Below, one piece after another: positions 7,038 through 28,400 of a stretch of DNA of 62,896 nt (its first letter is position 1; each line of letters begins with the position of its first letter). The notes under the pieces were generated by a model. The model did not search any database and was not told where the DNA came from. It saw only the letters and a list, made by a program, of their open reading frames with translations. Source of the stretch: Oligoflexales bacterium (GTDB lineage Bacteria > Bdellovibrionota_B > Oligoflexia > Oligoflexales > Bog-1112); assembly GCA_045105515.1 (NCBI GenBank), contig JBGCDR010000138.1:1-62896 (forward strand), read 5' to 3'. The translations under genes were made by a program, and so were the position numbers.

Positions 7038-7649
7038 TTAATAACGATATTGTGGTTTCCGGCATTTTACTACCGAAGAATCTGAAAATCCGTAAGAGTT
7101 CGGAGACTTAAATACAAGCCCCTCAACCCAAGAGCGTTTGTCTTGAAGGACAGCTAAGCAATCATTGAGATTTTTTAAAACGGTGAGAATCTCAACATGA
7201 GGAGAGATGAAATCCCTAGGAATCATCTTAAAACGATCTCGATAGCAATGAGAAACAAGGATCTTATCATCCCTTTTTAGATAGTCGAAAACATATAGCT
7301 TTTGCTCTTTTTTCAACCATTCAACATCTAGCACCGACCAGCCTATCTGGGGTGTAAAAATTCGCCTTAATTCAACAACAATTGAAGAATCTAATTTCTT
7401 ACTGTGTATCTTGCCAGACCGCGTATAGGCAACGGGCTCGACATTAGGATCAGCATGCAAGTGAATTTGTGCACGATGGCCATGTATTTTAGTTTGTCCC
7501 CACCACCCAAGATTTAACACTTTCTCAATAGACGGGGGGTCAGGGTTAATCTCAGTCTTTGGATGAATAGGCCTAATAAAAGCTGGAAGTTGCATCTTTT
7601 TCTTTCTTTGTAACAGCGACCATCCCATACGCATATTCCCTTTCAACAA
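7038..7649 (-). CDS. Stand-alone ATP-dependent polynucleotide ligase nucleotidyltransferase domain (no OB fold)
   Basis: Motif I TKIHGHR, III LDVEW, IIIa VFDYL, IV EGLVFK, V VKCRK at the C-terminus. Confidence 0.75.
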   Translation of the reverse strand: MLKGNMRMGWSLLQRKKKMQLPAFIRPIHPKTEINPDPPSIEKVLNLGWWGQTKIHGHRAQIHLHADPNVEPVAYTRSGKIHSKKLDSSIVVELRRIFTPQIGWSVLDVEWLKKEQKLYVFDYLKRDDKILVSHCYRDRFKMIPRDFISPHVEILTVLKNLNDCLAVLQDKRSWVEGLVFKSPNSYGFSDSSVVKCRKPQYRY

Positions 7650-8396: not shown

Positions 8397-10679
8397 TTAT
8401 GCTACATTCTCCAAATTTTTTAGACATTCTTTGACATCAAATTGTACCTCAGTACTCGCATACCAGAGATCTCCAAGTTGGTTTAATCTTGATATCACGC
8501 TATTAATATTGAATTTTTTTGGATCTAGATCTTCATTGACCTCACTCCACCTTAAAGGAGTCGAAACAAGAGCACCGGGTACAGGCCTCACACAATAGAC
8601 AGAAGCAATGGTCTGCCCATGGTAGTTTTGCATATAATCTAAATAAATTTGATCTTTTCTTTTGCTTTTGGATCGCTCAATACTTGTCAGATTGGGCAAA
8701 CGTGCTACAGTAAGTTCACAAACTTTCTTGGCCAATGACCTTGCTTCGGTAAATGAATAATTTGGCACAATGGGAATCATGATATGTAGACCTCGCGATC
8801 CAGATGTCTTACAAAACCCTCGGATCTTGGCTTTATCGAGAATATCTCTTATGTGATTAGCCACTTCAACGATTTCTTGAAAATGATTACTCTCGCTTGG
8901 ATCCAAATCAATATAAACTTGATCAGGGCACTCAAGCTGCTCAGTTCTTGACATCCAAGGGTTCAATTCAATGCAGTACAGATTAGCTAGATACAACAAA
9001 CTATATTCGTTTTGACAGAGGGGGTAATTAATAAAACCTTTTTTTGCGGATTTGACCCTAATAGTCTTAAACCATGAAGGAATAAAGCCAGTTAAATCTT
9101 TTTGAAAAAAACTATCCCCCCTTATTCCTTTCGGATGTCTGTGCATCGATATAGGCCGATTCTTTATATATGGTAAGATTAAACCAGCTACAATCGCATA
9201 ATAATTAACAAGATCCTCTTTAGTATAAGCTTCATCTGGCCAAAGAACTTTTTTCAGTTGACTAATCAAAGGACCATTCTTAAATTGTATATTGTCAGTG
9301 CTGCGAAATTTTTCATATTGCATAGGTGTAAACTTAGGAGCACTCCAATTTTCTTCTTTTTCTAGTTTAAGCAAATCAGAGCTTGTATCAGACCGTTTAG
9401 TGTTCTCACTCGGAGATCTAGTTAAACAGCACTCGATCAAGCAAGATGAAACTCCTTTTTGGTATATACAATCTGCGTATTTTGCAAAATATTTAATTTC
9501 TCCTTGCAGATGCTGCTCTAATTCTTCTTGATGAATTTCAGGTTTTAATATGATATTTTCATCAAAGATATTTAAGCTCCTGAGCTGATTTAGTCGATAA
9601 TGGAAAGGCTTATTTCTTATATCCTCATTTTTATGAACCAAGAGATCAGTAATAAAGATCTTAATATTTCCTTGTTTAGTACGATGAAAGCTCCTTAATA
9701 ATTGTTGTGAAAGCTGCTGATTATTTTCATCAAAAACGGTAATTTCACATTCAAACACCAAGTCTTGAGAAATCTTACTAAGGTATGTAAAAGCGGGTTT
9801 AAAACTATCTTTATAAGATACCTTGCTATGGGAGTACATTCTCACATTTCCATTGTCAATGTGAGCAATTGCACGGTAACATGGGTTTTTTAAAAATAAT
9901 ATCCATGAAGAATCAAATTTATGCTTCGTACCAAGGATCGGATGCATCATCCCATAGTGAGACACACTCTTTGCTTCTTGGGAATCTCCACCCTGAGTTG
10001 CCACATCTTTTGTAGCTATTTTTGGCTGACTAAGAGTGACCACCAAGTCTTCTGCAGGCAAGGTATTTTTATCTGGTAGCCAAATATCTGTTTTTTCTTG
10101 TTTACTTAATTCTGCTAGACTCAGCCCTGACAATACTGACTTATTTTTCTCAAGGATATTTTCTCTATAGTCAGCAAGTTGATCTTGTTTTTTCATTAAC
10201 AACCAAGATCCTGAGTCTTTAAGCCGAATGAGCGCAAACTCTCCACAAAGTTTATGACCACTTAGTACGAAGGTTAGTCGACCTTTTTCAAAGCCTTTTA
10301 ACATCGCTAGCACACTATCCTCTCTGCCTTGGCTTGAGCGTTCAATATAGGTGCCTTGATCCCATAGTAAAACAGTTCCTGCCCCATAATTTCCAGGAGG
10401 AATTTTTCCTTCAAAGCGGCCATAAGCAAGAGGGTGATCCTCAACATGCACAGCCAAACGCTGATCCAAGGGGTTCAAACTTGGGCCTTTTGGCACGGCC
10501 CAGCTCTTTAGGCACCCAGCAAATTCGAGGCGGAAGTCGTAATGCATTCGTGTCGCAGCATGCTGCTGGATGAAAAACTTCAGCTGGCCAGAGGAAAATT
10601 CTAAGTCCCCTTGCGGTTCTGAGGTTTTACTAAAATCTCTTTTTTTATTGTACGCTTCTAGGTCTTTATCTTTGCTCAT
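8397..10679 (-). CDS. ligD: LigD-like protein: intact phosphoesterase + degenerate ligase + intact primase-polymerase
   Basis: PE: QQHAATRMHYDFRLE, KSWAVPKGPS, VEDHPLAY. Pol: IDLDP, KTSGSRGLH, YLDY. Ligase motifs decayed. Confidence 0.9.
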   Translation of the reverse strand: MSKDKDLEAYNKKRDFSKTSEPQGDLEFSSGQLKFFIQQHAATRMHYDFRLEFAGCLKSWAVPKGPSLNPLDQRLAVHVEDHPLAYGRFEGKIPPGNYGAGTVLLWDQGTYIERSSQGREDSVLAMLKGFEKGRLTFVLSGHKLCGEFALIRLKDSGSWLLMKKQDQLADYRENILEKNKSVLSGLSLAELSKQEKTDIWLPDKNTLPAEDLVVTLSQPKIATKDVATQGGDSQEAKSVSHYGMMHPILGTKHKFDSSWILFLKNPCYRAIAHIDNGNVRMYSHSKVSYKDSFKPAFTYLSKISQDLVFECEITVFDENNQQLSQQLLRSFHRTKQGNIKIFITDLLVHKNEDIRNKPFHYRLNQLRSLNIFDENIILKPEIHQEELEQHLQGEIKYFAKYADCIYQKGVSSCLIECCLTRSPSENTKRSDTSSDLLKLEKEENWSAPKFTPMQYEKFRSTDNIQFKNGPLISQLKKVLWPDEAYTKEDLVNYYAIVAGLILPYIKNRPISMHRHPKGIRGDSFFQKDLTGFIPSWFKTIRVKSAKKGFINYPLCQNEYSLLYLANLYCIELNPWMSRTEQLECPDQVYIDLDPSESNHFQEIVEVANHIRDILDKAKIRGFCKTSGSRGLHIMIPIVPNYSFTEARSLAKKVCELTVARLPNLTSIERSKSKRKDQIYLDYMQNYHGQTIASVYCVRPVPGALVSTPLRWSEVNEDLDPKKFNINSVISRLNQLGDLWYASTEVQFDVKECLKNLENVA

Positions 10680-10839: not shown

Positions 10840-11412
10840 ATGACAATAAAAAGTAAAATTCTGGCCCTGGGCCTAGCAGGACAAGGAATGGTCTTAAGTT
10901 CTTGCAGTACCAGCAAACAAAGTGCTTTTGAAATAACCCAAGCAGAATTAGAGCAAAGTGATAGAAGTGCTGCAAATATAGATTCGCAAAAAGAAAAAAT
11001 AGAATCCACTATCAAGCTATTTCGTGAGTCTTTTTCAAGCTATGAAAAAGAAACCCTCCTCCCCGCACTAAAAATGATTTATGCAGAACAAGCCTTTCTC
11101 AACGACCGCATCCAGCTTCACAAGGGTATCAAGGAAATCGAAACCTACTTTGCAAATACATTCGATAAAATTGAAAGCGCTAGATTCGACATGCTAGAAG
11201 TAACCTACGGTAGCAAAGACGCATACGTGCGATGGGACATGCACATAAAGACCGAAGGCTCAGATAAACACTGGACTTTTCCTGGCATGAGCCAGCTTCG
11301 TTTTAATGAGGAAGGAAAAATAATCTTTCATTTCGACCACTGGGACTATGCTCAGTTATTAGAAAAATTCCCTGGTATTGGAGGTGTTGTGAGGTATATC
11401 CGTTCCCTGTAA
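10840..11412 (+). CDS. SnoaL/NTF2-like lipoprotein
   Basis: Lipobox LSSC; Y...A.LND...H.G...I..YF and GMSQLRF...IIFHFDHWD. Confidence 0.8.
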   Translation: MTIKSKILALGLAGQGMVLSSCSTSKQSAFEITQAELEQSDRSAANIDSQKEKIESTIKLFRESFSSYEKETLLPALKMIYAEQAFLNDRIQLHKGIKEIETYFANTFDKIESARFDMLEVTYGSKDAYVRWDMHIKTEGSDKHWTFPGMSQLRFNEEGKIIFHFDHWDYAQLLEKFPGIGGVVRYIRSL

Positions 11413-11419
11413 TTAAGAC

Positions 11420-11902
11420 CTACCCTGACAGGGTAGATGCTATCTTTTCTAGTTCCTTGGCCCAGTTATTAGGTAGATCTACCTTTGTTTTGTCGACGTA
11501 ATTGAAGCTAACTATCATAGCCGAGCCTAGAGCCACTAATTGCTTTCTAGTTTTACTGAATAGGCCGTAATCCATATTGAAACGATCTTGGCCTATATTA
11601 CTAACGCCTGACCCTGCAATGATATCATCAGGAAAGTAGATTGGATTGATAAATTTACAGTCAGTTTTTGCTAATACGGGTGCTACTTTATCACTAAGGC
11701 TTATTTCAGCTTGTAAGAAAAATTCGATTCTTACCGATTCGAAATAACGAAAAAAAACAGTATTATTGACATGCCCTAGGGCATCCTGCTCACCCCAAGC
11801 AACAGCAATCTCCTTAGTAACAGGAAATTTCTTTAAAAAAGCGTTTAAGTCGAGCATAATCTTCTTCCTCCATAGAATGTGCACTATCAATTTTAGAGCC
11901 AT
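11420..11902 (-). CDS. Acyl-CoA thioesterase (4HBT/YbgC hotdog family)
   Basis: WGEQDALGHVNNTVFFRYFESVR. Confidence 0.9.
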   Translation of the reverse strand: MALKLIVHILWRKKIMLDLNAFLKKFPVTKEIAVAWGEQDALGHVNNTVFFRYFESVRIEFFLQAEISLSDKVAPVLAKTDCKFINPIYFPDDIIAGSGVSNIGQDRFNMDYGLFSKTRKQLVALGSAMIVSFNYVDKTKVDLPNNWAKELEKIASTLSG

Positions 11903-12068
11903 GACTAAGATATCTTAAGAAAAGAAAAATGTCTGTTTAAAACAGATGCTCTTCTATCCAGCACTAGCTTTTTTAATAAGCAATAATAATCTCGATTGAT
12001 GATTGCCATACGATGAATTATAAAAATGTATTGGGATTACTTCTTCGTTCACTCAAGAAGGGAATAAA

Positions 12069-12575
12069 ATGAAAATTATTCATTATCTATGTACTACACT
12101 ATTGTATTTTAGTTTTTCTGCGCATGCTCAACCGAGTACTCTATGTGACATAAAGGAGATAGACGAAGATGCAGACCAAAAAGCTGAAACTCTAGATTGC
12201 CATGAGAATAGCAAAATAACATTGTTTGAAAATGTCCCTTCACAAGAAGAAATATCTAAACTTTTAAATTCTATCTTCCCATGCACAGGATTGAATGAAG
12301 AAAAATGCATGCAATATGATCAAGATTTTGAATTTGTCGAACATGGATCTTGCGATGATGATGGCTACTTTGTGGTGGGAGCTGCCAATAATATTGGAAG
12401 CTCTAGTATAAAGCAACTGCATGTTAATCCATTAAACATTCGCAAAGTCTATCCCACCTTGGGGCTTTTTTCTTACAAGCCCATGTTCCAAACTTTAGGA
12501 GTCCTTGCTGGAAATCCCGTGCATTTCAAGATCAATGAAGTTTTTCATGAAGAAAAATCAAATGAAAACCCTTAG
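12069..12575 (+). CDS. Secreted hypothetical protein
   Basis: Signal peptide ending AHA; several Cys. Confidence 0.7.
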   Translation: MKIIHYLCTTLLYFSFSAHAQPSTLCDIKEIDEDADQKAETLDCHENSKITLFENVPSQEEISKLLNSIFPCTGLNEEKCMQYDQDFEFVEHGSCDDDGYFVVGAANNIGSSSIKQLHVNPLNIRKVYPTLGLFSYKPMFQTLGVLAGNPVHFKINEVFHEEKSNENP

Positions 12576-12578
12576 CTT

Positions 12579-13190
12579 CTAGTGTTTCTGAGCTAGAATA
12601 ATGGTTGCAAAGTCGCAACTAGGGTCTTCGATTGCAAATTCGACAATATTAATTCCATGATTTTCTAGAATTCGGCGATACTCTGCAGGGTCCAAGCTGC
12701 TATGATAAACTTTTTCTCCACAAACATGTCCAAACACTTCTCCATCTTTGGGACCAACTGTTACCAGTAAGATCCCCTTAGAATTAAGATGTTTAGAGAA
12801 TAATGGCAGAACACTTCGCTGCTCTTCTCGGTCAAGGTGAAAAAAGCTATGCCAAGCAATAATCCCATCAAAAGTCTTTCCTAAATCTAACTGCCGCATA
12901 TCTTGCAACTTCCATATACAATTTGGAAAGCGTCTTTTTGCCATGTTTAGCATTGATTCAGCATAATCAACGCCAGTCAATTCGTACCCTTTTTCAATCA
13001 AATACCTTGCAATAGGCTCACCTGATCCACAACCTACATCAAGAATGCTAGCAGGCTTAGAACTCAGATTATCGAATTTGCTAAGCCACCCTTTTTCAAT
13101 GAGTGTTTTACCCCTTTCTGAATCAAACTGCTCTCCATTTCTTTCGTAAACGCTTTGAGTATTTGTGGCAATAAATTTCATGTCGACCAA
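12579..13190 (-). CDS. Class I SAM-dependent methyltransferase
   Basis: ILDVGCGSGEP, FDGIIAWHSFFHL. Confidence 0.9.
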   Translation of the reverse strand: MVDMKFIATNTQSVYERNGEQFDSERGKTLIEKGWLSKFDNLSSKPASILDVGCGSGEPIARYLIEKGYELTGVDYAESMLNMAKRRFPNCIWKLQDMRQLDLGKTFDGIIAWHSFFHLDREEQRSVLPLFSKHLNSKGILLVTVGPKDGEVFGHVCGEKVYHSSLDPAEYRRILENHGINIVEFAIEDPSCDFATIILAQKH

Positions 13191-13467
13191 ATCACACTCC
13201 TAATTCAACCATTTTAATTAAAACCATCCTAAAAAACCTATAAAAGCTCTGAGGACGTATTGTTTTAGTCTCAAAGAGGCCTAGTGAGGTAGGGATAATC
13301 CCTCAATTTACATTCAAAAATTGCAAAACCTCAATGTTTAAGTTAATCAAAGTGATGATTAGAATCCTCAAATTGGAGATTTCAAGGAGTCATAATCTTA
13401 ATCAACAGAGCGATGAGGAGAGGATTTGAAATATAATGAATTAGACAACAAAAGCATCTTTATAAAA

Positions 13468-13476
13468 TGCTATAAT
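13468..13476 (+). promoter_or_regulatory. Extended -10 element (TGcTATAAT)
   Basis: Exact TGnTATAAT ~40 nt upstream of the 13515 start. Confidence 0.45.
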
Positions 13477-13514
13477 AAATCTGTTAGCACAGTCAATGAT
13501 AAGGACTGCAGAAA

Positions 13515-14210
13515 GTGGAAAAGCTTCATTTTTTTAAAAAGAGAACTTGGTTACTACCTATAAGCTTACTCATTCCACTGGTTCCAATTTTTATCTACCT
13601 GTTTATCAGTCTTTTACTTTCGCTCATCCCAGTTGGCGAGTTACACTCTGCAAATCCCCCCGACCGGATACCTGTCTATTTAAGCTCGAATGGAGTTCAT
13701 GTAAATTTTATCCTTCCCGTGATGAACCCTTGGTTTGACTGGAGGCTTCATATATCTTCAAAAAAGCATAAAATATATTTTAATGAAACCAACTTTCTGA
13801 GCTTCGGCTGGGGTGACAGAGATTTTTATCTAAAAACAAGAGAATTTAGTGACCTCACACTTAGTTCCGCTTTTAGCGCAATGTTTCTTGATAGTCCATC
13901 AGTAATGCATGTGCTAGTTTACAAAAAAGAACCAATTATAAAAGAGTGGGTAAAAAGAATATTTGTCGATAAAGAGCAATACCTAAAACTTACGAGTTTT
14001 ATACTCAATAGTTTTGCGAACCCTGATGATATTACTCCGGTCCCTTGCTGCCCATATTATCCAGGTCATGATCAATTCTATCCTGCGAAAGGATCTTATG
14101 ATCTATTCTTCACCTGCAATACCTGGATAGTTGAGGGAATGCAAAAAATCGGTGCTAAAACAGCACTTTGGAGTCCCTATCCTTTAGGGATTTTCTACCA
14201 CATCCCTTGA
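13515..14210 (+). CDS. TIGR02117/DUF2459 family protein
   Basis: SNGVH, FGWGDRDFY, YDLFFTCNTW, WSP; N-terminal TM. Confidence 0.85.
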   Translation: MEKLHFFKKRTWLLPISLLIPLVPIFIYLFISLLLSLIPVGELHSANPPDRIPVYLSSNGVHVNFILPVMNPWFDWRLHISSKKHKIYFNETNFLSFGWGDRDFYLKTREFSDLTLSSAFSAMFLDSPSVMHVLVYKKEPIIKEWVKRIFVDKEQYLKLTSFILNSFANPDDITPVPCCPYYPGHDQFYPAKGSYDLFFTCNTWIVEGMQKIGAKTALWSPYPLGIFYHIP

Positions 14211-14398
14211 TCCCAACAAAATTGTCTACTTTTGGATTGCTTTAAAAAAAGAAGATGCTAACGAAGCTAGTCAATAGACTGCTGAAGTATTAATCAGCTC
14301 TAAGAGTCTAAAAATTATTATAAAATAAGCTAAATTTAATAGCTCCTTAAAAAATTCCGATAGGCTTAGAAAGAACTTGACAAAAATTCGGAAGCGCT

Positions 14399-14764
14399 AT
14401 GAATAAAACTCATTTTAGTACGAAAATTAACGAGAAAACCAAGAAAAGCACTCGGATCTCAGATGATTTTGATACCGACTTTGAGTTAAAAACACTCGAG
14501 AGCACAAGAGTTTCACAAATACTGCGAAGAATGAGGTCTAGTGACGATATAGATTTGATTTTTAAAAATGATAATAGAAAACGTTGCATGAAATTCTTAG
14601 GAACAATTACCTTATGTGCTTTATTAATTTTCGCATATAATTATGACCCTGTGCAATTATATCGCGACTCTATGGATGCAAGATTAGAAAATTTTGTTTC
14701 CTTAACAACAGAAATTTTTTATCGTGTAAGTTCAGAGATCTCTAGATTTAATAGTTCCAAGTAA
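14399..14764 (+). CDS. Hypothetical single-TM protein
   Basis: 121-aa ORF with one hydrophobic segment. Confidence 0.55.
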   Translation: MNKTHFSTKINEKTKKSTRISDDFDTDFELKTLESTRVSQILRRMRSSDDIDLIFKNDNRKRCMKFLGTITLCALLIFAYNYDPVQLYRDSMDARLENFVSLTTEIFYRVSSEISRFNSSK

Positions 14765-15031
14765 ATGAGCATAATTCTTCTGTGGAAAACTTTCTAAAAA
14801 GGGAAAAATACTGACTGTATCTTTTTCCAAGGCAGCTACAAAAACCCAATAAAATTTAGATACCCACTCGAATCAAATACATCGTAAAGATGTCTTAGAA
14901 TATAATTCTAAGGGGTTTGAAAATCATACTAAAAATTTTGATATTCAGCGCATATAAACTTCAGAATCGAAGAGATATGTTACACTAAGAAAGAATATTT
15001 TTTAGTAAAATAAAAAATTATTGGACACCTT

Positions 15032-15400
15032 ATGATCAAAAAGATAATTCCCTTCGTCCCTGCTAAGAACTACTTCTTGTGTAAGTCATTCTTCGAAGAC
15101 CTTGGATTTAAAAAACATTTAGAGACGGATGAATTTACCGAGTTCAAGTCTGGAAGCGAAAGCTTTTATCTGCAAAACTTTTATGTCAAGGAATGGGCTA
15201 AAAACTGTGTGATTAAGCTTTGGGTTCACGACTTAGATTCTTGGTCAGATAAAGGAAATTTCATCATAACGAGTAAAAAGTACCCTGAAATACAGATGCT
15301 TGGACCAAAGATGTTCCCATGGGGATTACAAGAAATTCATCTTATCGATCCATCTGGGGTACTTTGGCAATTTGCCTTGATAGCTGAAAATACTCCCTAA
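15032..15400 (+). CDS. VOC/glyoxalase family protein
   Basis: PFVPAKNY..CKSFFEDLGF, PWGLQEIHLIDPSGVLW. Confidence 0.85.
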   Translation: MIKKIIPFVPAKNYFLCKSFFEDLGFKKHLETDEFTEFKSGSESFYLQNFYVKEWAKNCVIKLWVHDLDSWSDKGNFIITSKKYPEIQMLGPKMFPWGLQEIHLIDPSGVLWQFALIAENTP

Positions 15401-15554
15401 GCGTTCACATCACAAGAAAACTTCTGCTTCTCATGCTAAAATGGTATCTAAGGAAAAAATATGTAAAAACTTGACAATTCTTAAAGAAAATAAATGCATC
15501 GTCAAATTACAATAGATCGATAGGCATCTTCAAATTTTTAAAAGCGGAGGAGAA

Positions 15555-16220
15555 GTGGTGAATAAATCAGATTTCATCGAACATCTCGCTGGCAATATGG
15601 ATACGTCAAAGTCTGAAGCAAGAAAATGGCTTAATGCCTTCATTGAGGGTGTTCATTTGGGGATCATTGAAGAGCATGGTCTCAGGTTGGCTGGGATAGG
15701 AAGTTTTACGCATACTCTACGTAGAGCTCGCATGGGTAGAAACCCACAAACGGGAGAACAAATCTCAATTCCGGAAAAGTGGGTACCAAAATTTCGAGCT
15801 GGGCTTGTGCTTAAAAAATTAGTTGGGAAAAAGAAAAACAGTACCTCTGCGAAGCCTAAGGGTTTGAATGTCAAAGTAAGTGCAAAAGGAGCCTTGTCTG
15901 TTTACGGCTTAGGTAGATTTCCTGTAACTTTGTACAAGGAACAATGGATAAAGCTACTTAAAAAAAGGACTCATATATTGAATATTATCAATATGGGTGG
16001 AGAGATCAATGAGAAGCTAGTGCTAAAAAGTAAGCAAAAACAGAAAATTGAACTGGCAATAAAACTAAGCCCCAAGGGCGCATACTCGATTTACGGTCTA
16101 GGCAGATACCCTATCTCCCTCTATAGCGAACAGTGGATCAAGCTACTGAAAATCAGAAAAAAAATTCTGGATTTTATTGAATTAAATGGCAATAAACTTA
16201 CTTCCAAAGCCGAACAATAA
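15555..16220 (+). CDS. HU-family DNA-binding protein fused to two tandem ~50-aa domains
   Basis: N-terminal HU (GIGSF...ARMGRNPQTGE...PKFRAG); duplicated KxSxKGAxSxYGLGRxPxxLYxEQWIKLL. Confidence 0.85.
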   Translation: MVNKSDFIEHLAGNMDTSKSEARKWLNAFIEGVHLGIIEEHGLRLAGIGSFTHTLRRARMGRNPQTGEQISIPEKWVPKFRAGLVLKKLVGKKKNSTSAKPKGLNVKVSAKGALSVYGLGRFPVTLYKEQWIKLLKKRTHILNIINMGGEINEKLVLKSKQKQKIELAIKLSPKGAYSIYGLGRYPISLYSEQWIKLLKIRKKILDFIELNGNKLTSKAEQ

Positions 16221-16305
16221 AGCTTATATCAGAATAGGTAGCCTTCTGCGGGAGTTTACTCAACTCCTATTTTATCGGGAAATAATCCAACACCACATTA
16301 TTCGT

Positions 16306-17052
16306 TTATGTAATCCCCGTGTGACTTAAGCAAGTGCTCATCTGTGTTAAAACCGCACTAAAGCATTTGGGAGTGGGCGCATTAATTGTTAAAACTTGCT
16401 TTTGATACGGATGAATAAACTTTAACGCACTGGCATGCAGCATAAGACGCGTGCACTTAAAACTACTACGACAATGCTGGTTATGTTTACCATCACCATA
16501 ACGGGTATCCCCGATAATCGGATGAAAAATATGCTTTAAATGACGCCTAATCTGATGTTGTCTCCCTGTCAAAGGTTTGACCCGCAACAAAGAATAGCGC
16601 GCAGATGCATATGGCCTCACCGGAAAAGGGTGTTCATAAGCACTAATTAGCTCATAATCAGTGCAAGCTTCCTGTTTGGCTCCAGTTTTTTCAAGATCTG
16701 TCAGTGGTGAGTCAATGTGCCCACAAACCTTGGTATGACCTCGGACAACTGCTAAGTATTCTTTTTGAATATCTCTTTTAGCAAAAAGTTGGCAGAGCAA
16801 ATGAGCAGAGTCACGATCAAACCCAAACATCAAAACACCTGATGTGGCTTTGTCCAATCGATGCACCGGATAAACCCACTTTCCTAACTGCTTTCTAAGC
16901 AGCGAAACCATGTTGCTCTCGGTATAAAAGTCGATATCTGTTTTATGAACCAGAAAGCCAGATGGCTTGTTGACGATAAGCAAATGCTCATCTTGGAAAA
17001 GGATTTCAATGGTTGGATTTTGTCTTTCTTCTGAGTCAAAGAATGTTTCCAA
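16306..17052 (-). CDS. truC: RluA-family pseudouridine synthase, TruC-like
   Basis: NKPSGFLVH, VHRLDKATSG, TGRQHQIRRH, HPIIGDTRYG, LMLHA; no S4 domain. Confidence 0.8.
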   Translation of the reverse strand: METFFDSEERQNPTIEILFQDEHLLIVNKPSGFLVHKTDIDFYTESNMVSLLRKQLGKWVYPVHRLDKATSGVLMFGFDRDSAHLLCQLFAKRDIQKEYLAVVRGHTKVCGHIDSPLTDLEKTGAKQEACTDYELISAYEHPFPVRPYASARYSLLRVKPLTGRQHQIRRHLKHIFHPIIGDTRYGDGKHNQHCRSSFKCTRLMLHASALKFIHPYQKQVLTINAPTPKCFSAVLTQMSTCLSHTGIT

Positions 17053-17093
17053 TATATTTCCTTAATCACACTATAAAAGACAAGATGCGATGG

Positions 17094-18155
17094 TTATAGG
17101 TTATGTTCTTCAAATATCCCTGCATGAAATGCAGGGTTTGCTTTACCTTCTTCACCATCGGATTTCAATTCATCAAATAATAATTGGTGCATTTCGGGAG
17201 ATATGATCTGCTGATGATTTCTCTGATGTTCTCTTTCATCAGAAATTTGAGCAGTCAATGAATGCATAAGTCTGAAAGTATCTTCAAGCGATCTGCCTAA
17301 AGCTCCAGACATTTCTACTTCAGTCATAGCTGGTAAAACAATACTTTGACTCATGCATTCAGCGGCTCTTCCTTCAGTTTGAACTTGGTCTGTTGAGTAA
17401 GCAATACCTTGAGCTCCTATTACTTGTGACTTGTCTTCTGGATCACGCTCGATTTGAATAACTTGTTTGAACTTACTCATTGCCTGTTCGTATTCTTGCA
17501 TAAATGTGGAGATCTTTTGTCCTGGATCTTTTTTTCTGTATTTTTGTAAATGAGATTTAACTCGCTCAGGGGTAATATTGGGGTTGTCTAAAATCATTTC
17601 AGGGATAATTAAAGAAGGAGATGCTGCCTTCATTCCTTGCTCAAAGACTGCTCTTACAAAATCTTGATGCTCACGCTCACTCCAGTCTGAACCTGATGTT
17701 CTAGCTTTCTTTTTTTGGGGGACTTCATCTCTTAAAGCTACAGCATGCTTACCTAAGACTGAAACTCTATTTTCAGACCGAAGAGGTGCTGCAATTTGTT
17801 TTAATTTTTTAGGGACGTCCAGCTCTTTCAGTTTGCTGATAATCAGACTTATCAGTCCGATTGAAGCTTCTGTTTGATTTGCATATTCGATTGTTATACG
17901 AACCGTTCGATTATATTTATGTGGAGAAACTTTTAGGAAAATTTCATCTGAATTATCCGGCATGATAATAGTAAGCCCTTCCTCTAAAGATTTAAAGGGC
18001 AGTTCTTCTAAAGCCAGAGTATGTACCGTTTCAGCGACTATTTGTGTCTTAGTCAAATTTTGGAATAAGTAAACAGTTTCTTCGCTACCACCGTAGCAGT
18101 AAGTCCCGATAAATAATGCAATTAAGGATAATAATGTATTCATAAGAAAGCTCAA
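17094..18155 (-). CDS. Secreted protein with a eukaryote-type GARP/SHAQKYF-class Myb DNA-binding domain
   Basis: Signal peptide (likely ATG 18143); PQKKKAR; WSEREHQDFVRAV...ASPSLI...ITPERVKSHLQKYR. Confidence 0.85.
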   Translation of the reverse strand: MSFLMNTLLSLIALFIGTYCYGGSEETVYLFQNLTKTQIVAETVHTLALEELPFKSLEEGLTIIMPDNSDEIFLKVSPHKYNRTVRITIEYANQTEASIGLISLIISKLKELDVPKKLKQIAAPLRSENRVSVLGKHAVALRDEVPQKKKARTSGSDWSEREHQDFVRAVFEQGMKAASPSLIIPEMILDNPNITPERVKSHLQKYRKKDPGQKISTFMQEYEQAMSKFKQVIQIERDPEDKSQVIGAQGIAYSTDQVQTEGRAAECMSQSIVLPAMTEVEMSGALGRSLEDTFRLMHSLTAQISDEREHQRNHQQIISPEMHQLLFDELKSDGEEGKANPAFHAGIFEEHNL

Positions 18156-18505
18156 GTAATTGTTTTACAACAGTTTTTTTGAATCACGACAACATACACA
18201 AGAGCTTGTAATATAGCAACGAGAAAGGTTAAAATATGCAAATCTGCTGATACAACGAGGTACCACAGCTTGGTTTCCTGGCCCAAACAGTTGATTTTCA
18301 ATGCAATAAACATGATTCACTCGATTCAACTCGGAAAATAGATAAACCATCCATCTAGATACGAAAATATTCCTGCACATTTAATCCATAAAAAACAATA
18401 TTATAGGAATTTAACTAATAAAAATTAGCTAATTGATCGATATAGAATGGCAGAGCGAAGTATATATGGACTTTAACTAGGTTATTACCAAAAGGTTGAT
18501 TTACA

Positions 18506-20133
18506 ATGATTTTTAAACTGTTTATGCTACTTACTCTTGTAATACAAGGGACTGCTTGCAGCAAAAAAAATTCTAGCGTTATTGACCCTAAAAATACAAC
18601 AGAACCTGCTAGCGAGATCAATGATGAAAATGTAGTTAAAATTGATGATACCATGGCAAATGCAGAAGATGCTTAATCAAATGCGAAGATAATTGATATT
18701 GGTTTGGAAGAATTAGTAGATGCAGGTGGCAATAACCTAACTCCTGACACCCAAATCGCCAAACTGAAGCCAGCTTTATCTACGGAATTAAATCCACAAA
18801 CAAGTTTTGTATTTCAAATCATTGAAACAGAAGGAACCGATTATGACTTCTTCATGCTCAAAGATGCTAATATTTTCTCGAAAAAAGAAATTCTCGGAGA
18901 TAGGCGCTATTTTCTAAATATTGAGGTAAAAACCGGAGATATTAGCTTCAGTAAGAACATAGTTTTTTCAATTTCAGCAGGACAGATTCCTCCTGAAAAC
19001 CCACAAGATATATTACTATCAAATACATCCATCGATGAAAATTTACCTAAAGGTAGTGAAATTGGCTCATTTGTCGTTATTGACGATGCAAGAAATCAGC
19101 ATGATTTAACACTACTAGTTTCAGAAGATGGCCAAAATGACAATGCTTTATTTTATCTGGAAGGAAACAAAATTTTTGCTAACGAAAGCTTTGATTTCGA
19201 AAGCCGCAATTCATTCAATATTGCAATGGTAGCAAAGAATACGGAGTTTGCAGATAAAATGTTAATAAAAAATATAAGCATAAGCGTTACTGACCTTGGA
19301 GAATGCAAAGATTTATCCCTAGGGGGAATTTGGGTTCAAGTGCCTGGAGATCCTGATTATGGAACTGATGACTTTTGCGTCATGAAGTATGAGGCTAAAT
19401 GTGGGCGACTGGATGGGAATAATTGTACCGCTAATATTGATACTGAAATCCCAGTTTCAAAACCTGAGGGAAGCCCTTGGGTAGAAATTATTCAACAGCA
19501 AGCCATTACCGAGTGTGCTTCCATAGGAACTGGCTTTCGCTTGATCACCAATGAAGAATGGATGACTATCGCAGCAAATATTACGAACGTAGGTGAGAAT
19601 TGGAGCGATGGGGCTGTGGGAGCAGGGGTACTTGCCAGAGTCATTCTGATAATAATCCAAGCAGCGCTTGCGCTGCCGATTCAAACGACGCTAATGCCTA
19701 CGTACAAACTGACTGTTTAGGTGGAGAAGAAGGTCCATTTAATCAGCGTAGAACCCATTTTCTTGCAGATGGCTCTACCATTTGGGATTTGAGTGGTAAT
19801 GTCAGAGACATTGTTGACTATTTCAACGATAGCGACAAACCTCAACCTGCTAGCTTTGGACGTAAAGAATTCATGGAAGTTACCGGCACTGACAGCATGC
19901 CAAAAACAGCATTAGTTCCTTCCAACAAAGCATTCTGGAGTCCTGACTGGAATTCCAGCACTCATTTTATTGGTTATTATTATGGCGGACCTAACATGCA
20001 AGGAGGGCCTCTGATGCGTGGAGGGTGGTACCTTAGCGGCGCTACATCTGGGCTTTTTTATGTCAATTTAAATGAAGATAAGGCTTTTGATATGATTGGA
20101 TTTAGATGCACGGCAGCTGTTCCCAATCTGTAA
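18506..20133 (+). pseudogene. Disrupted lipoprotein: cadherin-like domain + FGE/C-type-lectin-fold domain
   Basis: ATG 18506 with lipobox GTAC; in-frame TAA at 18674-18676; same frame resumes at 18704; -1 frameshift near 19640 (AR-G-HSDNNP); FCVMKYEAK, RLITNEEW, WDLSGNV, RGG, IGFRC. Confidence 0.8.
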
Positions 20134-20210
20134 AACTGGCCTCTCAGTACCATCGAGAAATCTTTCTTTAGCCAGATTATCTTTTTCAAACCTAGTTTAT
20201 CATCCGATAA

Positions 20211-20726
20211 ATGCAGATTATAATAAAAAAAGACCAAATTTTAGTCTGTACAGATAGAGATTTTACAAAGAGAATACAAGGGGAATTCCATTTGCTTGAT
20301 AAGAAGATTTTTATCACAGTATTCGTAGCTGTTATTGCAGCTCTATTTACGTATGAAAAGTTTTATAAAATTCGCTATAAACAAGCTGCTTATATTTCTG
20401 AAGGAATAGTACAGGCGACAAGAATAAAAAACCATGTCATGGAATACTACATGACCACTGGAAAGCTCCCCTCGACTAATAATGATTTAGGAATCGCTCC
20501 ACCTGAACAATTCAAAAGTGAATCACTCGTCAGTTTAGAGGTATCCAAAGGAGGGATCATTACCCTTACTTTTGACAGAAAATCTGGGGTTAAAAATGGC
20601 ATCATTCAATTTAGCCCGAAAGTGAGAGAAACCATGAATCCGCAGTGGGCCTGCACAACACCAAGCTATCAAAAAATTTCATCTTATTATCCACAGTGTA
20701 AATATATTGAAAATAAAGATTCGTGA
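20211..20726 (+). CDS. Type IV pilin-like protein (PilA globular domain)
   Basis: SEG...A..IKNHVMEYYMTTGKLP; C-terminal W.C...P.C disulfide; true start may be TTG ~20292. Confidence 0.7.
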   Translation: MQIIIKKDQILVCTDRDFTKRIQGEFHLLDKKIFITVFVAVIAALFTYEKFYKIRYKQAAYISEGIVQATRIKNHVMEYYMTTGKLPSTNNDLGIAPPEQFKSESLVSLEVSKGGIITLTFDRKSGVKNGIIQFSPKVRETMNPQWACTTPSYQKISSYYPQCKYIENKDS

Positions 20727-20787
20727 GAGGTGTGAATCTGACTTAGGTGAGGCTTATTTTTTTAAAATACTCGATTCGATCAGTATA

Positions 20788-21231
20788 TCACAGAGACATT
20801 TTCTTCTTGATTAAATAGTCTAGAGATAATTTTCCTGCACCTGTGGAAGCAAGAACAAGAAAGCTGAAGAAGTAGACTAACGCTAGCTCCTTCTTTGCAA
20901 ACGGATCTGCAAAGTGCCTTCCAAAGGCTGCTACGAACATAGTAATACAAACAAATATGGAACTAAAGCGGGTCGAGAGCCCTATTGCCACGAAAAAAGC
21001 TCCAATAAATTCGGCAAGACCGGCAGCGAAAGCAAATAAGCTTGGAAGGGGAAATCCTAAGGCACCAACCGCTTGAACAAAACCCTCTGAAGGTGGTATC
21101 TTACCTATACCATGGGCAAAAGCCATCATCCCACCTATTCCCAACCTCCCTAAAAGTAGAGTAAGATTAGAAATTTTAGAATTGAATTCTTCTCCACTCA
21201 CAACGAAAGAAATAATTTTCTTTAAACTCAT
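20788..21231 (-). CDS. DoxX family membrane protein
   Basis: LLGRL...HGIGK, AEFIGA...GL.TR, GAGKLSLD. Confidence 0.9.
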   Translation of the reverse strand: MSLKKIISFVVSGEEFNSKISNLTLLLGRLGIGGMMAFAHGIGKIPPSEGFVQAVGALGFPLPSLFAFAAGLAEFIGAFFVAIGLSTRFSSIFVCITMFVAAFGRHFADPFAKKELALVYFFSFLVLASTGAGKLSLDYLIKKKMSL

Positions 21232-22479: not shown

Positions 22480-25400
22480 GTGAATGGTTTGACTCTAGGG
22501 ATTTTAATACTGCTTAATATGACATTTATTTGGTCATGTGGTGTTCAAAATCCACAGAAGCAGGACCTTAATGAAGTAAAAACAGACGATTCCACCTCAA
22601 GTCGCGGCTTAGCAGAGACCATTGGAGATTTTAAGCTCGAGTGCCAATGGGGCACTTCTAAATCCTATATACTTTGTGGACTCCATTCCGTGGAAACCAA
22701 AAAACGTATCCCTGATTTAGAGGTTAAAGAAAAATTCATCTCTTCATTTGCTATTACTCCCTATCACCGAGTTAGCTTTGAGGTCATGGAAGGAGGATCT
22801 TTCAGACCAGATTCTGTATTGACCTATGAGGAGCAGACTCTGGTAAGTTCTAGTTGGCATATTAAAATCGGAGTCAGCAATCCAGGGACTATCAGTTCCA
22901 TCGTCCTAAAAGTAAATGATGCCATCAAGAAGGAACTTGAAACAGAACGCTTTACTTTGGACCGTTCACTTATCAAAGGCGAGGATGAACTATTTGCTGG
23001 CTTTGATATTACCAAACCTAAACCCCTCACCCGCAAACAATATCCTGAGATCACTTGGTCACCGATTGGTGATAATGTTGGTTACTACCATGTAAGGTTA
23101 GCATCAGACCCAGGTTGTTCTGAGGTGCTACAAGAGAAATTTGTTGAGAATGGGCTTGAACATGCATTTTCTGGTGGACTGAATGATGGAATCTACCATG
23201 TTTGCATTAGTGCAAGGAACAATGCTGGCTATACTAAGGATGCAGATAACAATGCTTATCAATTTGAAGTTGACACCCTCCCTCCACAAGAAGCTCAAGT
23301 AAATGTTCTCGATCTTGATGGAGTTAAGACTATTCAACTATCAGCAATAGATGCTGTTGAAATGATAATATCTAAGGAAGAAACATGTGAAGGTAATGAC
23401 TGGGAAGATTTTGAACCAGAAAGAGAATGGCCATTTGGTGATTTTGCAGGAAAGATATACGCTAAATTTCGTGATGAAGTTGATAACGAAACAGAATGTA
23501 TCATTCAAGGTGGGAATAATGCTGGAAAAGAATTTGCTTGGCTCATTATTAACAATGGTGATGAGTACACCAATCAAGATCCTGTACAGCTTACCTTTGC
23601 AAAAGATCCCGAGCTAGAGGTGGATGTTAAAGAAATCAGTATCTTCAATGGCACTGAATGTGATGAAGAAACTGAAGAATGGATCCCCTATTCCCCAGAT
23701 CCAATAGATTGGGCTTTGGCAGAAATGAATAGCGAAATAAGTATTTCTGCACTTTTTAAAGACGAAAATAGCAATATTTCTGCTTGTTCAACCGCAAGCA
23801 TAACTCATGACAATATACCACCTTCAGGAGAGCTAAGGTTTAATGGTGGCAGTACCCATGTCAACGCTCTGGATGTCACTCTAAATATCCTGTCAGATGA
23901 CAGTGCTTTTATGCTTATAACCGACATTGATTTCGAGGCATGCCAAGCAATAGAGCCTTCAGAACCTTTTTCAGATATTAAGCAGTGGACCCTTGTTAAT
24001 GAAAATGCTGAAAACAGTCTACATTTTCGTCTGAAGGATCTCGCAGGAAACTTATCTGAATGCACGCTTGCCTCTGTGATTCATGATAATGTTCCACCTC
24101 AAAGCCCGAGTATCAATCTCAATGAAAATGCGACCTGGACTAATGACCTAACAGTGAATGTCTATTCTACTGTATTAGGAGCAACTCAAATCTATGCTAC
24201 CGGCGACCCTACCTGCATTGTAGGAGGGACCTGGCAAAACCTTGCTGTAAGCAACCCTGCAATCTTACAAAACGCAAACACCACAGATACCATCTATGCA
24301 GCATTCCGTGACGAAGCAGGAAATATCAGTGAATGTGTCACCGACACCATTATTCATGACAACATAGCACCTGGTGACCCCACCATTGTCATCGATAGCG
24401 GCAATGATTATACCCAAGTTACCACAGTAAGCTTAGCCTTAGCAGGGCCTGAGATCACCAACATTGATATGTATGTGACTCAAGATGCCACATGTACGGC
24501 AGGTGGAACCTGGGAAAATTATGCGGCAGGCAAAGCTTGGACTTTAGCAAATTTAAATGCGGAGAATAATATTTATGTTGCCTACCGCGATCAGGCTGGA
24601 AATATAAGCAACTGCATCTCAGACTCAATTATCCATGACACCATTGCTCCAACTTCAAGCCTTAGCTTTGAAGATGGAGCAGCAGCTATCAACACAACTG
24701 CAGTCTCACTGACCATTGATCTTGGCGATGGTGCTGAAATGTATGTGACTAACAGCTCCGATTGCACTGGGGGAAGCTGGGAAACGATAGCAGCAACAAA
24801 AGCATGGACCCTTAGCAACCTCAACGCTAACAATACAGTCTATTTCAAATTTAAGGATTTAGCTGGAAATGAAACAAGCTGTCTTTCGGACTCTATCCTT
24901 CATGACAACATTAAGCCGACCTCTGGAACTGTAAGCATAGATGCTGGAGCCACCTACGCCACTGACACTGCTGTGACCTTGAGTCTTTCAGCTGTTGAGG
25001 CTGACTATGTCTATGTCACTAATGATGCTTCTTGCACCACTGGTGGCAACTGGGTAGCCTATACCACCTCACTTGCCTGGGCCCTTGGTCAGTCCAATAG
25101 CACTGCGACAGTCTATGCGAGCTATCGGGATGAAGCCGGAAACGTTATCGATACTTGCGCCTCTGATACGATAATCCATGATGATATAGCTCCTACAGGG
25201 AGCATAGCCATAGATGACTCTGGCAATGACGGATTCACCAATGACTCCACCCCGAGTCTGACACTTTCAGCCACAGATACCAATGGGCTTGCTCAGATGT
25301 ATATTACAAACACAGCAGGCTGCGCCTCAGGAGGAACCGAAGAAGCTTATGCTACTTCTTCTGCATCTTGGCCTATAGCACAAACCAACAATACCGCAAA

Positions 25401-28400
25401 TGTTTATGTAAAATTTAAAGACAATGCAGGGGTTTGGAGCGACTGCTACAGCGATGATATTGTCCATGATAGTATCAACCCAAGTGGCAGCTTGACCATA
25501 GATGCATCGGGTGATGACAACTATACCAGTGACTCAACACCTAGTCTGACCATCAGCAGCAGCGATGCCAATACAGTCTCTGATATGTATGTGACTAACA
25601 CTGCAGGGTGCGCTTCGGGTGGATCTTGGGAAAGTTATGCAACAAGTAAATCTGCGTGGACCCTAGGAGCAACTGAGACTGGTACTACTGTCTATATTAA
25701 GTTTAGGGATATTTCCGGAAATGAGTCTGCTTGTATTGATGATGCAACTACTCACGATTCTATTGCTCCCACCAGCCCTAGCATTAGCATCTCTTCTGGA
25801 GCTACATACGCAACTTCCACCTCCATAAGCGTTGATACTAGTGCCACAGCTGCTGCTTATGTTTATATGACCAATACCCCCGGTTGTGGAAGCGGAGGAA
25901 CATGGACGGCCCTCGCTGCTTCAATGGCATGGAACTTGGCACAGACTAATTCAACGGCTACGGTTTATGCTAAATTTCGCGATGAAGCCTATAACGAGTC
26001 TTCTTGTACTTCCGATACCATCACCCATGATGACATTGCGCCTTCATCCACAGCAATCACGATCGTAAATTCAGGTGTTGCCAATTATACGAACGATAGC
26101 GCTCCAAACCTTACCTTGTCAGCAAGCGATACTAATGGACTTGCGGAAATGTACATTACTAATACTGCAGGTTGTGCGAGTGGAGGCAGCGAAGAGTCTT
26201 ATAGCACTAGTAAGGCAGACTGGACCCTTGCTCAAAATGACACAACTGCAACCGTTTATATAAAATTTAAAGATAACCCAGGAAATTGGAGTAGCTGCAT
26301 AAATGGCACCATTATCCACGATGGTACCGCACCAACTGGCAGCATCACAATTAGCAACTCAGGAAATGCAGGCTACACTAACGAAAGCGCACCAGATTTA
26401 AGCTTAAGTGCCACCGATACCAATGGCGTTACTAAAATGTACGTCACCAACACCTCAGGCTGTGCTTCAGGAGGTACTGAAGAGGATTATGCGACTAGCG
26501 AGAACGATTGGACCCTCGGGCAAAACAACACCACAGCTACGGTTTATGTAAAGTTTAAGGATATCGCTGGTAACTGGTCCAGCTGCTTCAGCGATAATAT
26601 TGTCCATGACAATATTGCTCCTACTTCCACCAGTATTTCCATCAGCTCAGGGGCTACCTACGCCACAAGCACAAGCGTGAGCCTGAGTCTAGGAGCTACG
26701 GGAGCAGATCAAATGTATGCCACCAACACAGCAGGCTGTGGTTCAGACGGAGCATACGAGTCCTATAATGCGATCAAGTCATGGACTTTAGGCCAAGAAA
26801 ATACAACTGCAACCGTTTACATTAAATTCAAAGACCTGGCTCAAAACGAAAGTAGCTGTATTAATGACACGATCATTCATGATGGTATTGATCCCACTGC
26901 TCCCACCAGTATGGATGACGCAGTCTCAGCATCTACCGATGAAACTTCATCAATGAGCTGGGGTGTTGGCTCTGATAGCGGTTCCGGTGTTGCTTCCTAC
27001 GAACTTGCCATCGGGACGGCTGCAGAAGGCACCGATATTCTTGATTGGACTGATGTGGGCAATGTCCTCAGTGTAGCCCAGTCAGGCTTAAGCCTTACTT
27101 GGAACAATACTTACTATGCAAGCATTCGTACTAAGGATGCTGCAGGTCGCGTCAGCACTGTGACCGGAGGAGATGGATTCCTCGCCGGCTTTGTCCAAGA
27201 ATCATACCTAAAATCTAGCAACCAGGATTCCGGCGATGAAATGGGAACCTCGGTGGCCATCGATGTTGATACGGCTGTATCTGGAATTCCCTATTATGAG
27301 AATAGTGCAGCCAATAACTCAGGGGCTGCGCTTGTTTTTGTAAGGAGTGGACGTACCTGGAGTGAACAGCAGTTGCTAGTACCAAGCAACGTTGATGCAA
27401 ACGATCACTATGGGTTTTCGGTAGCAGTCAGTGGTGACACCCTAGTAGTAGGGTCCCCGAAGGAAGACAGCAACTCAACAACAATTGCAGGGTCTGAGAA
27501 CAGCAATGACTCTGCTCCGGATTCAGGGGCTGTGTTTGTTTACACCCGTTCGGGCGCCACTTGGACCTTAGAAGCTTATATAAAACCATCAAATAGTATG
27601 CCAAATAACCAGTTTGGTTATTCAGTTGCCCTTGACGGCGACACTTTGGTAGTCGGAGCTCCTTATGAAGATGGAAACCAAACAAGTATCACCAATACTG
27701 ATTCCACTGCATCTCCAGCCGATTACACCAGTGAGTATGATTCTGGAGCTGTGTATGTATTTAAACGCTCTGGAACCACCTGGACGCAGGATGCCTATAT
27801 AAAGTCAGCCAATAACACCGGTGGCTTTAATTTTGGCAAACATGTTGCCGTTGACAGCTCCACCCTGGTCGTAGGAGTACCTGATGAGGACAGTAATCAA
27901 ACAAGCATCACAAACGGAACCACTGCAAGTTCTGATACATCCTTGGAAGACTCTGGTGCTGTTTTTGTATATTTAAAAGATGGGGGAGGATCCTGGGCTC
28001 AAGAGGCTTATATTAAAGCAAGTAACAACGACAGCTATGATAGCTTTGGCTCAGCGATTTCAGTATCTTCTGATACAATTGTCGTGGGAGCACCACAAGA
28101 AGATAGTAATGCGCAATCCATTTCCACAGGAACAAGTACTAATGATGATGAAAGCGCAAGTGGAGCAGCTTATATTTTTACTCGCAGCGGCACTACCTGG
28201 AGCTTAGAGGCTTATATTAAAGGCTTTAACACTGAAGCTGGAGATTTATTTGCCCATTCTGTTGCGGTTGATGGTGATGACCTTGTCGTCGGTTCTTACA
28301 TAGAAGCAGGGGATCTGACAACCGTTGATAATGGCACTCCCAGCGACAATGACAACAGTTCCCAATCTGGAGCCTGTTATATTTATGCTCGTTCAGGAAC

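Follow-up and report, generated by a model that had tools for sequence, protein, structure and literature searches.

A eukaryotic-type SHAQKYF/GARP Myb protein with a hydrophobic leader in an Oligoflexales bacterium: a captured regulator of diatom-type ancestry and candidate mimic of algal transcription factors

The 62,896-nucleotide (nt) contig JBGCDR010000138.1 of an Oligoflexales bacterium (assembly GCA_045105515.1), which as a whole is the window analyzed here, carries on its minus strand a gene for a protein of 353 amino acids (aa) with a Myb domain of the SHAQKYF/GARP class (Table 1). We conclude that this gene is real and intact, that its location is bacterial and its ancestry eukaryotic, and that its sequence is conserved in one further homolog. 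Judged from its sequence, it is a xenolog of a eukaryotic (diatom-type) SHAQKYF/GARP family, and an algal origin is supported. The reading that we prefer, tentatively and with slightly less than even confidence, is that a captured algal regulator is exported via Sec and a type II system and mimics host factors in the nucleus of an alga. The export, the identity of the host, the entry into its nucleus, the DNA target, and the effect are the parts of this reading that we infer.

By its sequence characters, the domain is a true GARP/SHAQKYF Myb, and DNA binding is predicted. The model TIGR01557 (myb_SHAQKYF) matches aa 156 to 209 with 44.8 bits against a cutoff of 29.3 (E value, 1.1e-11), and the stretch from W158 to K209 (nt 17529 to 17684) is where the original prediction, made from the letters of the sequence, had placed such a domain. 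A six-frame search of the 6.29-Mb genome with TIGR01557 found this single place (48 bits), and none of 14 control genomes gave a match. Of the two models proposed for checking that prediction, TIGR01557 thus scored above its cutoff, but the general Myb_DNA-binding model PF00249 did not (17.9 bits versus 24.4), which counts against a plain "Myb" label. The diatom relative P0010 has no Pfam match either, so we take PF00249 to cover the SHAQKYF class poorly. The helix 1 residues W158, H163, and F166 and the SHLQKYR sequence at 201 to 207 are present and align to ARR1. Among sequences in the Protein Data Bank (PDB), all 11 with an E value of ≤1 are plant GARP proteins (ARR1, LUX, ARR10, and PHR1/2), the best being 8xas_A at 9.8e-6.

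Structure prediction agrees with this assignment. In an AlphaFold2 (AF2) model built on a 34-row alignment, three Myb helices (160 to 177, 180 to 186, and 196 to 208) have a predicted local distance difference test (pLDDT) score of about 90. A Foldseek comparison of the whole model with the PDB gave no match at an E value of ≤1e-3, and the rows for ARR1, PHR1, and LUX reached 0.1 to 0.6 only; we ascribe these weak values to the model spanning the whole protein. A two-copy complex prediction for aa 155 to 320 scored 0.17 against a mark of 0.42. The protein shares the three-helix fold and SHLQKYR with the plant GARP structures of ARR1 (8xas), ARR10-B (1irz), LUX (6qec and 5lxu), and PHR1/PHR2 (6j4k and 7d3y). 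Unlike plant GARPs, it has neither a receiver domain (Response_reg) nor the MYB-CC coiled coil (PF14379, LHEQLE) at a Pfam E value of ≤0.1, and its own downstream motif is not found in them. Just ahead of the Myb domain lies the basic patch PQKKKAR, noticed in the original prediction and located, as described there, at aa 146 to 152 (nt 17700 to 17720). Its KKAR fits what we take to be the monopartite nuclear localization signal (NLS) pattern, K-K/R-x-K/R, and its counterpart in the bacterial homolog P0003 is KKAK. As K-K-A-[KR] is kept in P0003 and basic patches precede the Myb domain at the same place in eukaryotic relatives, the patch looks inherited.

Similarity to eukaryotic proteins extends beyond the Myb domain, spanning the whole C-terminal 200 aa. 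A phmmer search of 1.84 billion protein representatives returned 459 with E values of ≤1e-3 and 80 with E values of ≤1e-10, a likeness well past what chance would give; two only, the protein itself (P0002) and P0003, reached ≤1e-30. The eukaryotic relatives share with the two bacterial proteins an ordered series of elements: a Myb domain with ASPS and a loop longer than that of plant GARPs, a basic extension with FM.EY, a GG..AA.L.Y block, and a helix with the pattern P.LTEEE..SPLG.S......LF.SMT. Two of these, written in the original prediction as ASP..I and LP..T..E....LG.SL, are real family-conserved blocks, and the diatom/stramenopile likeness suspected there is borne out, the named relatives all being diatoms. 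Against a profile hidden Markov model (HMM) derived from 34 eukaryotic relatives alone, excluding both bacterial proteins, the window protein reaches 134.8 bits, with 104.9 for the Myb domain plus extension and 31.5 (conditional E value, 6e-11) for the downstream block. P0003 receives 119.9 bits, and four plant GARPs receive 46 to 54 bits, on the Myb domain alone. The downstream motif follows the Myb domain collinearly in 126 of 148 among the relatives listed in the pairwise phmmer comparison. In the AF2 model, it belongs to a long C-terminal helix at 279 to 317 with a pLDDT near 90; regions outside the Myb domain, this helix, and a small N-terminal unit score low. The tail beyond could conceivably be activation-domain-like.

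The nearest named counterparts are diatom SHAQKYF Mybs, namely those of Thalassiosira pseudonana (XP_002287795.1/B8BU81, our P0032) and Mayamaea pseudoterrestris (GKY95306.1, our P0010), both uncharacterized. The shared characters are ASPS, a loop two residues longer than that of plant GARPs, the upstream basic patch, and, in the same order, a K.KSK.EFM.EYD-type extension, the GG..AA.L.Y block, and the P.LTEEE..SPLG helix. In contrast to these diatom proteins, the window protein is encoded by a bacterium, has a hydrophobic leader and an N-terminal domain of ~120 aa, lacks homopolymer runs, and sits on a long branch. All six of the clusters that carry an organism name are from diatoms (Mayamaea, Cyclotella, three Thalassiosira, and Rhizosolenia), and an identical "Alexandrium" record lies inside the T. 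pseudonana cluster. An oomycete-rich cluster from the ESM Atlas is a lead only.

In phylogenetic trees, the bacterial pair falls within a family clade that separates from plant GARPs at support values of 99 (FastTree, 159 rows) and 98 (IQ-TREE quick mode, 53 rows); P0002 and P0003 group together with support of 98 to 99. Two points speak against a more exact statement of ancestry. Only 6 of the 30 clusters looked up carried an organism name, and the stem of the bacterial pair is long (1.1 to 1.5), with its place inside the family not settled by the trees. In the part of a 2016 survey that was available, MYB-SHAQKYF proteins are covered in plants, green algae, stramenopiles, and Amoebozoa (PMC4827209). 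PtPSR and PSR1 are, in the accessible portion of another paper, SHAQKYF Myb regulators of phosphate starvation in algae, with the function characterized in a diatom (PMC13701856). They are the kind of host regulator that such a mimic could copy, likened here by class and not by the PtPSR sequence.

The gene resides on a contig that is bacterial and, as far as contigs can show, nonchimeric. The window is the entire contig C138 of a metagenome-assembled genome (MAG) of 461 contigs (90.9% complete, 4.8% contamination). Its tetranucleotide correlation with the other 75 contigs of at least 20 kb is 0.995 and puts it among the most typical (rank 63 of 76, with the least typical contig as rank 1), and its IlvD is 87% identical to that of a genome of the same genus (G001). 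An HU-type gene, a pilin gene, and ilv/leu operons lie nearby, together with the truC gene listed in Table 1. The gene has no intron. Its GC content at third codon positions (GC3), 0.269, falls at the 4th percentile of 1,860 long open reading frames (ORFs; mean, 0.340), within the range but at the low end, and the gene is AT-rich in the manner of accessory bacterial genes. Separate Logan contigs from three DNA runs (24.5, 30.6, and 17.1 kb) span positions 14000 to 20105 or beyond with 0 differences and even depth. The runs represent three samples from a single study, and the MAG may have been derived from them; no RNA run holding the stretch was listed among the runs. The original prediction had called for reads across truC and the gene, and the junction is bridged by all three run contigs, with no misassembly indicated.

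The sole close homolog, P0003, is a 333-aa protein, 47% identical, encoded on a 96.5-kb contig. It matches TIGR01557 with 37.9 bits and fully keeps SHLQK. Identity is unevenly distributed along the protein: 9% over residues 1 to 54, 41% over 55 to 140, 57% in the Myb domain, 52% over 233 to 274, 50% in the downstream motif, and 23% in the tail.

Whether the protein leaves the bacterial cell is a question of its N terminus, and we consider export, read from sequence, probable by a modest measure. The first ATG, at 18143, gives a product of 349 aa and is the likely start; the database form P0002 begins there. The best 12-aa window of the leader (TLLSLIALFIGT) has a mean Kyte-Doolittle value of 2.18, and a C-Y-G/G sequence after the hydrophobic stretch (slash, point of scission) is a possible cleavage context in the sequence read-out. 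The hydrophobic stretch of the originally predicted Sec-type signal is thus present, but its basic n-region is not, as no K or R lies upstream of the hydrophobic window. As a rough background, a value of at least 2.0 is reached by 36% of 3,309 crude ORFs in the genome; a hydrophobic N-terminal window of at least 1.8 occurs in 2 of 149 eukaryotic relatives, neither of them leader-like. Export is supported indirectly by related genomes, in which another four complete Myb ORFs bear canonical leaders.

Together with the missing n-region, several observations weigh against export. No Shine-Dalgarno sequence was found upstream of ATG 18143, and housekeeping genes on the contig are usually preceded by a motif of this type. 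AGGAAGG occurs 13 nt upstream of an internal ATG at 17963 (M65). These two circumstances make a leaderless product of 289 aa possible. In addition, P0003 as called has no hydrophobic N terminus, and its identity to the window protein in aa 1 to 54 is the lowest of any region. The same facts, joined by an ordinary chromosomal placement 41 nt ahead of the codirectional truC, favor a regulator domesticated to act on the bacterium's own DNA, either as a leaderless product starting at M65 or as one held at the inner membrane by the N-terminal helix. Conservation and predicted structure nevertheless reach upstream of M65: F31, H45, L52, K55, and E58 are shared, weakly, with P0003, a strand is predicted at 61 to 64, and structural matches in the ESM Atlas begin earlier still (span, 21/26 to 112). 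An anchor with its N terminus inside would put the Myb domain in the periplasm. The protein has also kept its basic patch and the downstream motif specific to eukaryotes, and export leaders are clear on the four other Myb ORFs. We regard a domesticated intracellular regulator as unlikely, though it is the strongest of the rivals to export of a host mimic.

What lies between the leader and the basic patch is peculiar to the bacterial proteins. A small sheet-plus-helix unit at aa 61 to 111 has a pLDDT of about 79 in the AF2 model from the 34-row alignment. A sequence search with the N-terminal domain alone found no relative but the protein itself, P0003 sharing its core, and no paralog of the domain was found in the genome. 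In the ESM Atlas, KA1-like folds (template modeling score, 0.60) and other small alpha/beta folds match aa 21 to 123 of the domain (aa 21 to 140, window positions 17736 to 18095, minus strand) with scores of 0.54 to 0.61 overall and are a lead only. An AF2 model of the isolated domain was unusable (pLDDT, 39.5), and a wide structure search with VIA-align gave merely trivial helical-hairpin matches at residues 1 to 56. As the domain has no other relatives and eukaryotic proteins have no comparable hydrophobic starts, the leader and the N-terminal domain of ~120 aa are bacterial additions, placed in front of the captured eukaryotic factor.

TABLE 1 Positions of the Myb gene, its parts and flanks in the window, and of related features on other contigs
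Feature	Position	Strand	Remarks
Whole ORF	17094..18155	-	353 aa from TTG 18155; stop codon 17094-17096
Hydrophobic N-terminal segment, aa 5-22, MNTLLSLIALFIGTYCYG	18090..18143	-	Signal-peptide-like or anchor helix; AF2 helix 2-20
Conserved core of added N-terminal domain, aa 55-140	17736..17993	-	Three strands and a helix predicted; common only to P0003 (41% identity)
Basic patch PQKKKAR, aa 146-152	17700..17720	-	K149, K150, and A151 invariant in P0003
SHAQKYF/GARP-class Myb, aa 156-209	17529..17690	-	Recognition helix VKSHLQKYR
Extension after Myb, aa 210-232, contains ISTFMQEYEQAMSKF	17460..17528	-	Helical; family-specific
Weakly conserved block GAQGIAYSTD, aa 247-256	17388..17417	-	Matches family GG..AA.L.Y
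Downstream motif, aa 275-311, PAMTEVEMSGALGRSLEDTFRLMHSLTAQISDERE	17223..17333	-	Long helix, pLDDT about 90; family-specific
C-terminal tail, aa 312-353, ends GEEGKANPAFHAGIFEEHNL	17097..17222	-	Poorly conserved, acidic/hydrophobic; G346 and F348 common to P0003
TruC-like pseudouridine synthase gene	16306..17052	-	41 nt downstream of Myb ORF, same strand; bacterial flank
Upstream intergenic region, 548 nt	18156..18703	.	AT-rich; divergent from next plus-strand ORF; only spurious-looking short ORFs
Three-repeat Myb ORF, related genome	G010:C497 (L089:1363-2052)	-	230 aa; c-Myb R1R2R3 (PDB 1h88) E 2.8e-37; N terminus MLKKSIYFIALFSLLATSGATYS
Three-repeat Myb ORF with KKRAR patch, related genome	G002:C33 (L090:1141-1980)	-	~268 aa from MKKLFF..; N terminus MKKLFFIFYFLFGFFSFYIFA
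One-repeat Myb ORF, related genome	G010:C384 (L088:1396-1842)	+	149 aa; 48.7 bits; N terminus MAIRTRILLIVSILFATYFTNA
Weak Myb ORF, genome of another family of the order	G033:C7 (L092:1-1287)	-	>429 aa; 26.4 bits; lipoprotein-type ..LSGC
Myb ORF with two R2R3-like repeats, own genome	G000:C151:131-664 (L091)	+	68.1 bits; no clear start codon
Six full-length NTT/TLC genes, own genome	G000, C74:14248-15699, C181:16531-17970, C166:4667-6130, C40:45082-46533, C393:20543-22006, C190:9435-10832		
Ankyrin-repeat frame, own genome	G000:C56:5635-6858	-	792-aa frame with at least 5 matches
F-box-like match, own genome	G000:C250:1925-2047	+	26.2 bits

The window gene does not stand alone among its relatives in carrying a Myb domain. 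PF00249 matches occur in 4 of 131 genomes of the phylum, three of them in the window's own family (16 genomes). Canonical Sec leaders are found on three of the ORFs concerned (two of the three-repeat type and one of the one-repeat type), and K or R precedes the hydrophobic stretch in all four complete ORFs. Counting that of the window, five Myb ORFs are complete, and each has a hydrophobic window of 2.18 or more near its N terminus. Their flanks are bacterial (Hsp20, DUF4256, GidA/TrmFO-type, rhodanese, deaminase, FtsK, and S41 peptidase genes), and the two three-repeat proteins, 32% identical to each other, lie in differing contexts. The second Myb ORF of the window's own genome, on C151, adjoins a large minus-strand ORF on a 5.3-kb contig of typical GC content.

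Several features of the genome are consistent with life in association with a eukaryotic cell. NTT genes occur in all 16 genomes of the family (one to six copies each) versus none of the 14 controls; in the window's own genome there are six full-length copies. This genome also has ankyrin-repeat ORFs (12 matches in at least seven frames) and one F-box-like match, of a kind found in none of the 14 controls. One Oligoflexales bacterium is described as attaching to cells of the stramenopile alga Nannochloropsis, replicating within them, and emptying them (PMC12865303). Two GspD secretins in the genome score above the type II cutoff. An idea that the protein is a Dot/Icm effector of Legionellales, taken from its Glu-rich C terminus, was dropped, genome searches having indicated a Bdellovibrionota-type MAG; Dot/Icm genes were not searched for.

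The mechanism that we propose would begin with the capture of the factor by a low-GC bacterium of the NTT-bearing family, which would have kept the basic patch, the Myb domain, the extension, and the downstream helix. The protein would cross the inner membrane by Sec and may be released through the outer membrane, either via the type II system that the genome encodes or in vesicles. The bacterium would live on or inside an algal cell, probably a diatom or other stramenopile, so that the protein could reach the host cytoplasm and, by means of its retained K-K-A-[KR] patch, enter the nucleus. There it may bind the promoter cis-elements used by related factors of the host, as their competitor or substitute, and the retained helix at 279 to 317 may engage the same partners. 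Extended to the family, the proposal becomes more doubtful, and we put it forward as a possibility rather than an expectation: a family of NTT-bearing algal endoparasites or predators may keep varied host-derived, leader-bearing Mybs (GARP, three-repeat, and single-repeat) to rewire nuclear transcription, with the window protein as the first GARP-type effector that copies a host factor.

Further findings tell against this mechanism. Neither a type III secretin above cutoff nor a TssC/type VI secretion sheath was found in the genome, and thus no injection machine is in evidence. The genome, at 6.3 Mb with full ilv/leu pathways, is unlike those of classical obligate endosymbionts. The remaining 130 genomes of the phylum that were searched, one of the same genus among them, yielded no homolog.

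The protein might instead be exported and act outside the host nucleus, on extracellular or prey DNA, on host organellar DNA, or in a nontranscriptional role. The leader evidence fits such an action equally, the want of an injection system is in its favor, and Bdellovibrionota include predators of bacteria. It is difficult, however, to see why the whole architecture of a transcription factor would be kept for plain DNA binding, which needs neither a non-DNA-binding helix nor an NLS-like patch. We judge an action outside the nucleus to be somewhat less likely still than a domesticated regulator.

Sparse occurrence could also mean that the gene is a neutral passenger, transferred and without present function. 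It is present in 1 of the 131 phylum genomes, its GC3 is low, and the stretch around it was not found in the congener. Window positions 11000 to 20900, truC included, were not recovered from G001 by DNA or by TruC protein; the G001 assembly is fragmented, and the matching contig starts inside a DoxX gene. The stretch may be a variable region or an assembly gap. Scans of genome and metagenome contigs with the alignment of the two bacterial proteins gave 127 and 171 pattern matches, none of them a relative. Against a passenger stand the intact frame of 353 codons and the retention of the DNA-contact helix and motif in a homolog of 47% identity. The composition, moreover, is fully bacterial, and the gene is therefore not a recent arrival. 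A functionless gene appears improbable to us. A chimeric assembly, or a bin contaminated by eukaryotic DNA, for which one could cite the estimated contamination of the MAG and the origin of the three runs in one study, is very improbable indeed, given that the separate assemblies of the three runs carry on from truC through the gene into its upstream region evenly and without a difference, that composition is typical and the housekeeping genes of the contig match the congener, and that the gene combines absence of introns with a bacterial-only N-terminal part.

The concept of a bacterial protein that acts on host transcription has precedents. TAL effectors of Xanthomonas and Ralstonia are NLS-bearing bacterial proteins that bind host promoters as transcription factors in a photosynthetic host. 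They have their own repeat code and are injected by a type III system, whereas the window protein is copied from a family of host factors, and the genome search gave no type III secretin above cutoff. Closer in kind are the Clostridia endosymbionts of termite-gut protists, which have an ATP/ADP translocase and, in the portion of the report at hand, carry protist-derived regulatory genes, "Myb-like transcription factors" among them (PMC10579323). Sec signal peptides are given there for at least 20 of 42 eukaryote-like genes, host manipulation is proposed by the authors, and such domains are attributed by citation to Legionella and Chlamydiota as well (PMC10579323). Through these Myb-like genes and signal-peptide-bearing eukaryote-like genes, the kind is already known by genome inference. 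As far as that portion goes, both cases concern translocase-bearing bacteria with eukaryote-derived Myb-type regulators. The window protein differs in phylum and habitat, in its diatom-type donor family, in its extra N-terminal domain, and in being of the GARP class with the whole C-terminal region, the Clostridia genes being compared by description. In the available part of a review of nucleomodulins, Myb appears as a host target only (PMC7819608), and our literature search found no paper naming a bacterial GARP/SHAQKYF factor. What is new here is the GARP/SHAQKYF class, the capture of the whole C-terminal region, the diatom-like donor type, the bacterial lineage, and the added N-terminal domain.

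A few other features of the contig deserve mention in their own right. The HU-type gene at 15555 to 16220 (plus strand) joins an HU-type domain (81 bits) to a C-terminal half with two units of ~45 aa (..YGLGR.P..LY.EQWIKLLK..). On the other side of the Myb gene, plus-strand ORFs at 18704 to 19720 and 19600 to 20133 overlap in different frames; a frameshift or an assembly slip may have split a single gene. A subthreshold cadherin match (20 bits) lies in the first ORF, and the letters of the overlap region are identical in the three run assemblies. A 2,041-aa ORF at 22480 to 28605 (plus strand) has FG-GAP repeats and Big_13, with a local GC content of 0.43 to 0.48 versus 0.38 for the genome. At 8397 to 10679 (minus strand) lies a LigD-type ligase/polymerase/phosphoesterase of nonhomologous end joining, followed by a small ATP-dependent ligase-like ORF at 7038 to 7649 (minus strand).

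If the proposed capture and export of an algal regulator is correct, the window protein would be a ready-made probe for a large and uncharacterized family of diatom transcription factors, and direct tests of its target DNA motif and of the partner of its downstream helix become feasible. A hidden parasitism between bacteria and diatoms, or other algae, would be indicated as well. The strategy would resemble that of TAL effectors, gained by theft of a host factor instead of by invention. More broadly, the copying of a host regulator combined with an export leader would be a general route of host control in NTT-bearing bacteria far removed from Chlamydiae, Legionella, and the Clostridia of termite guts.

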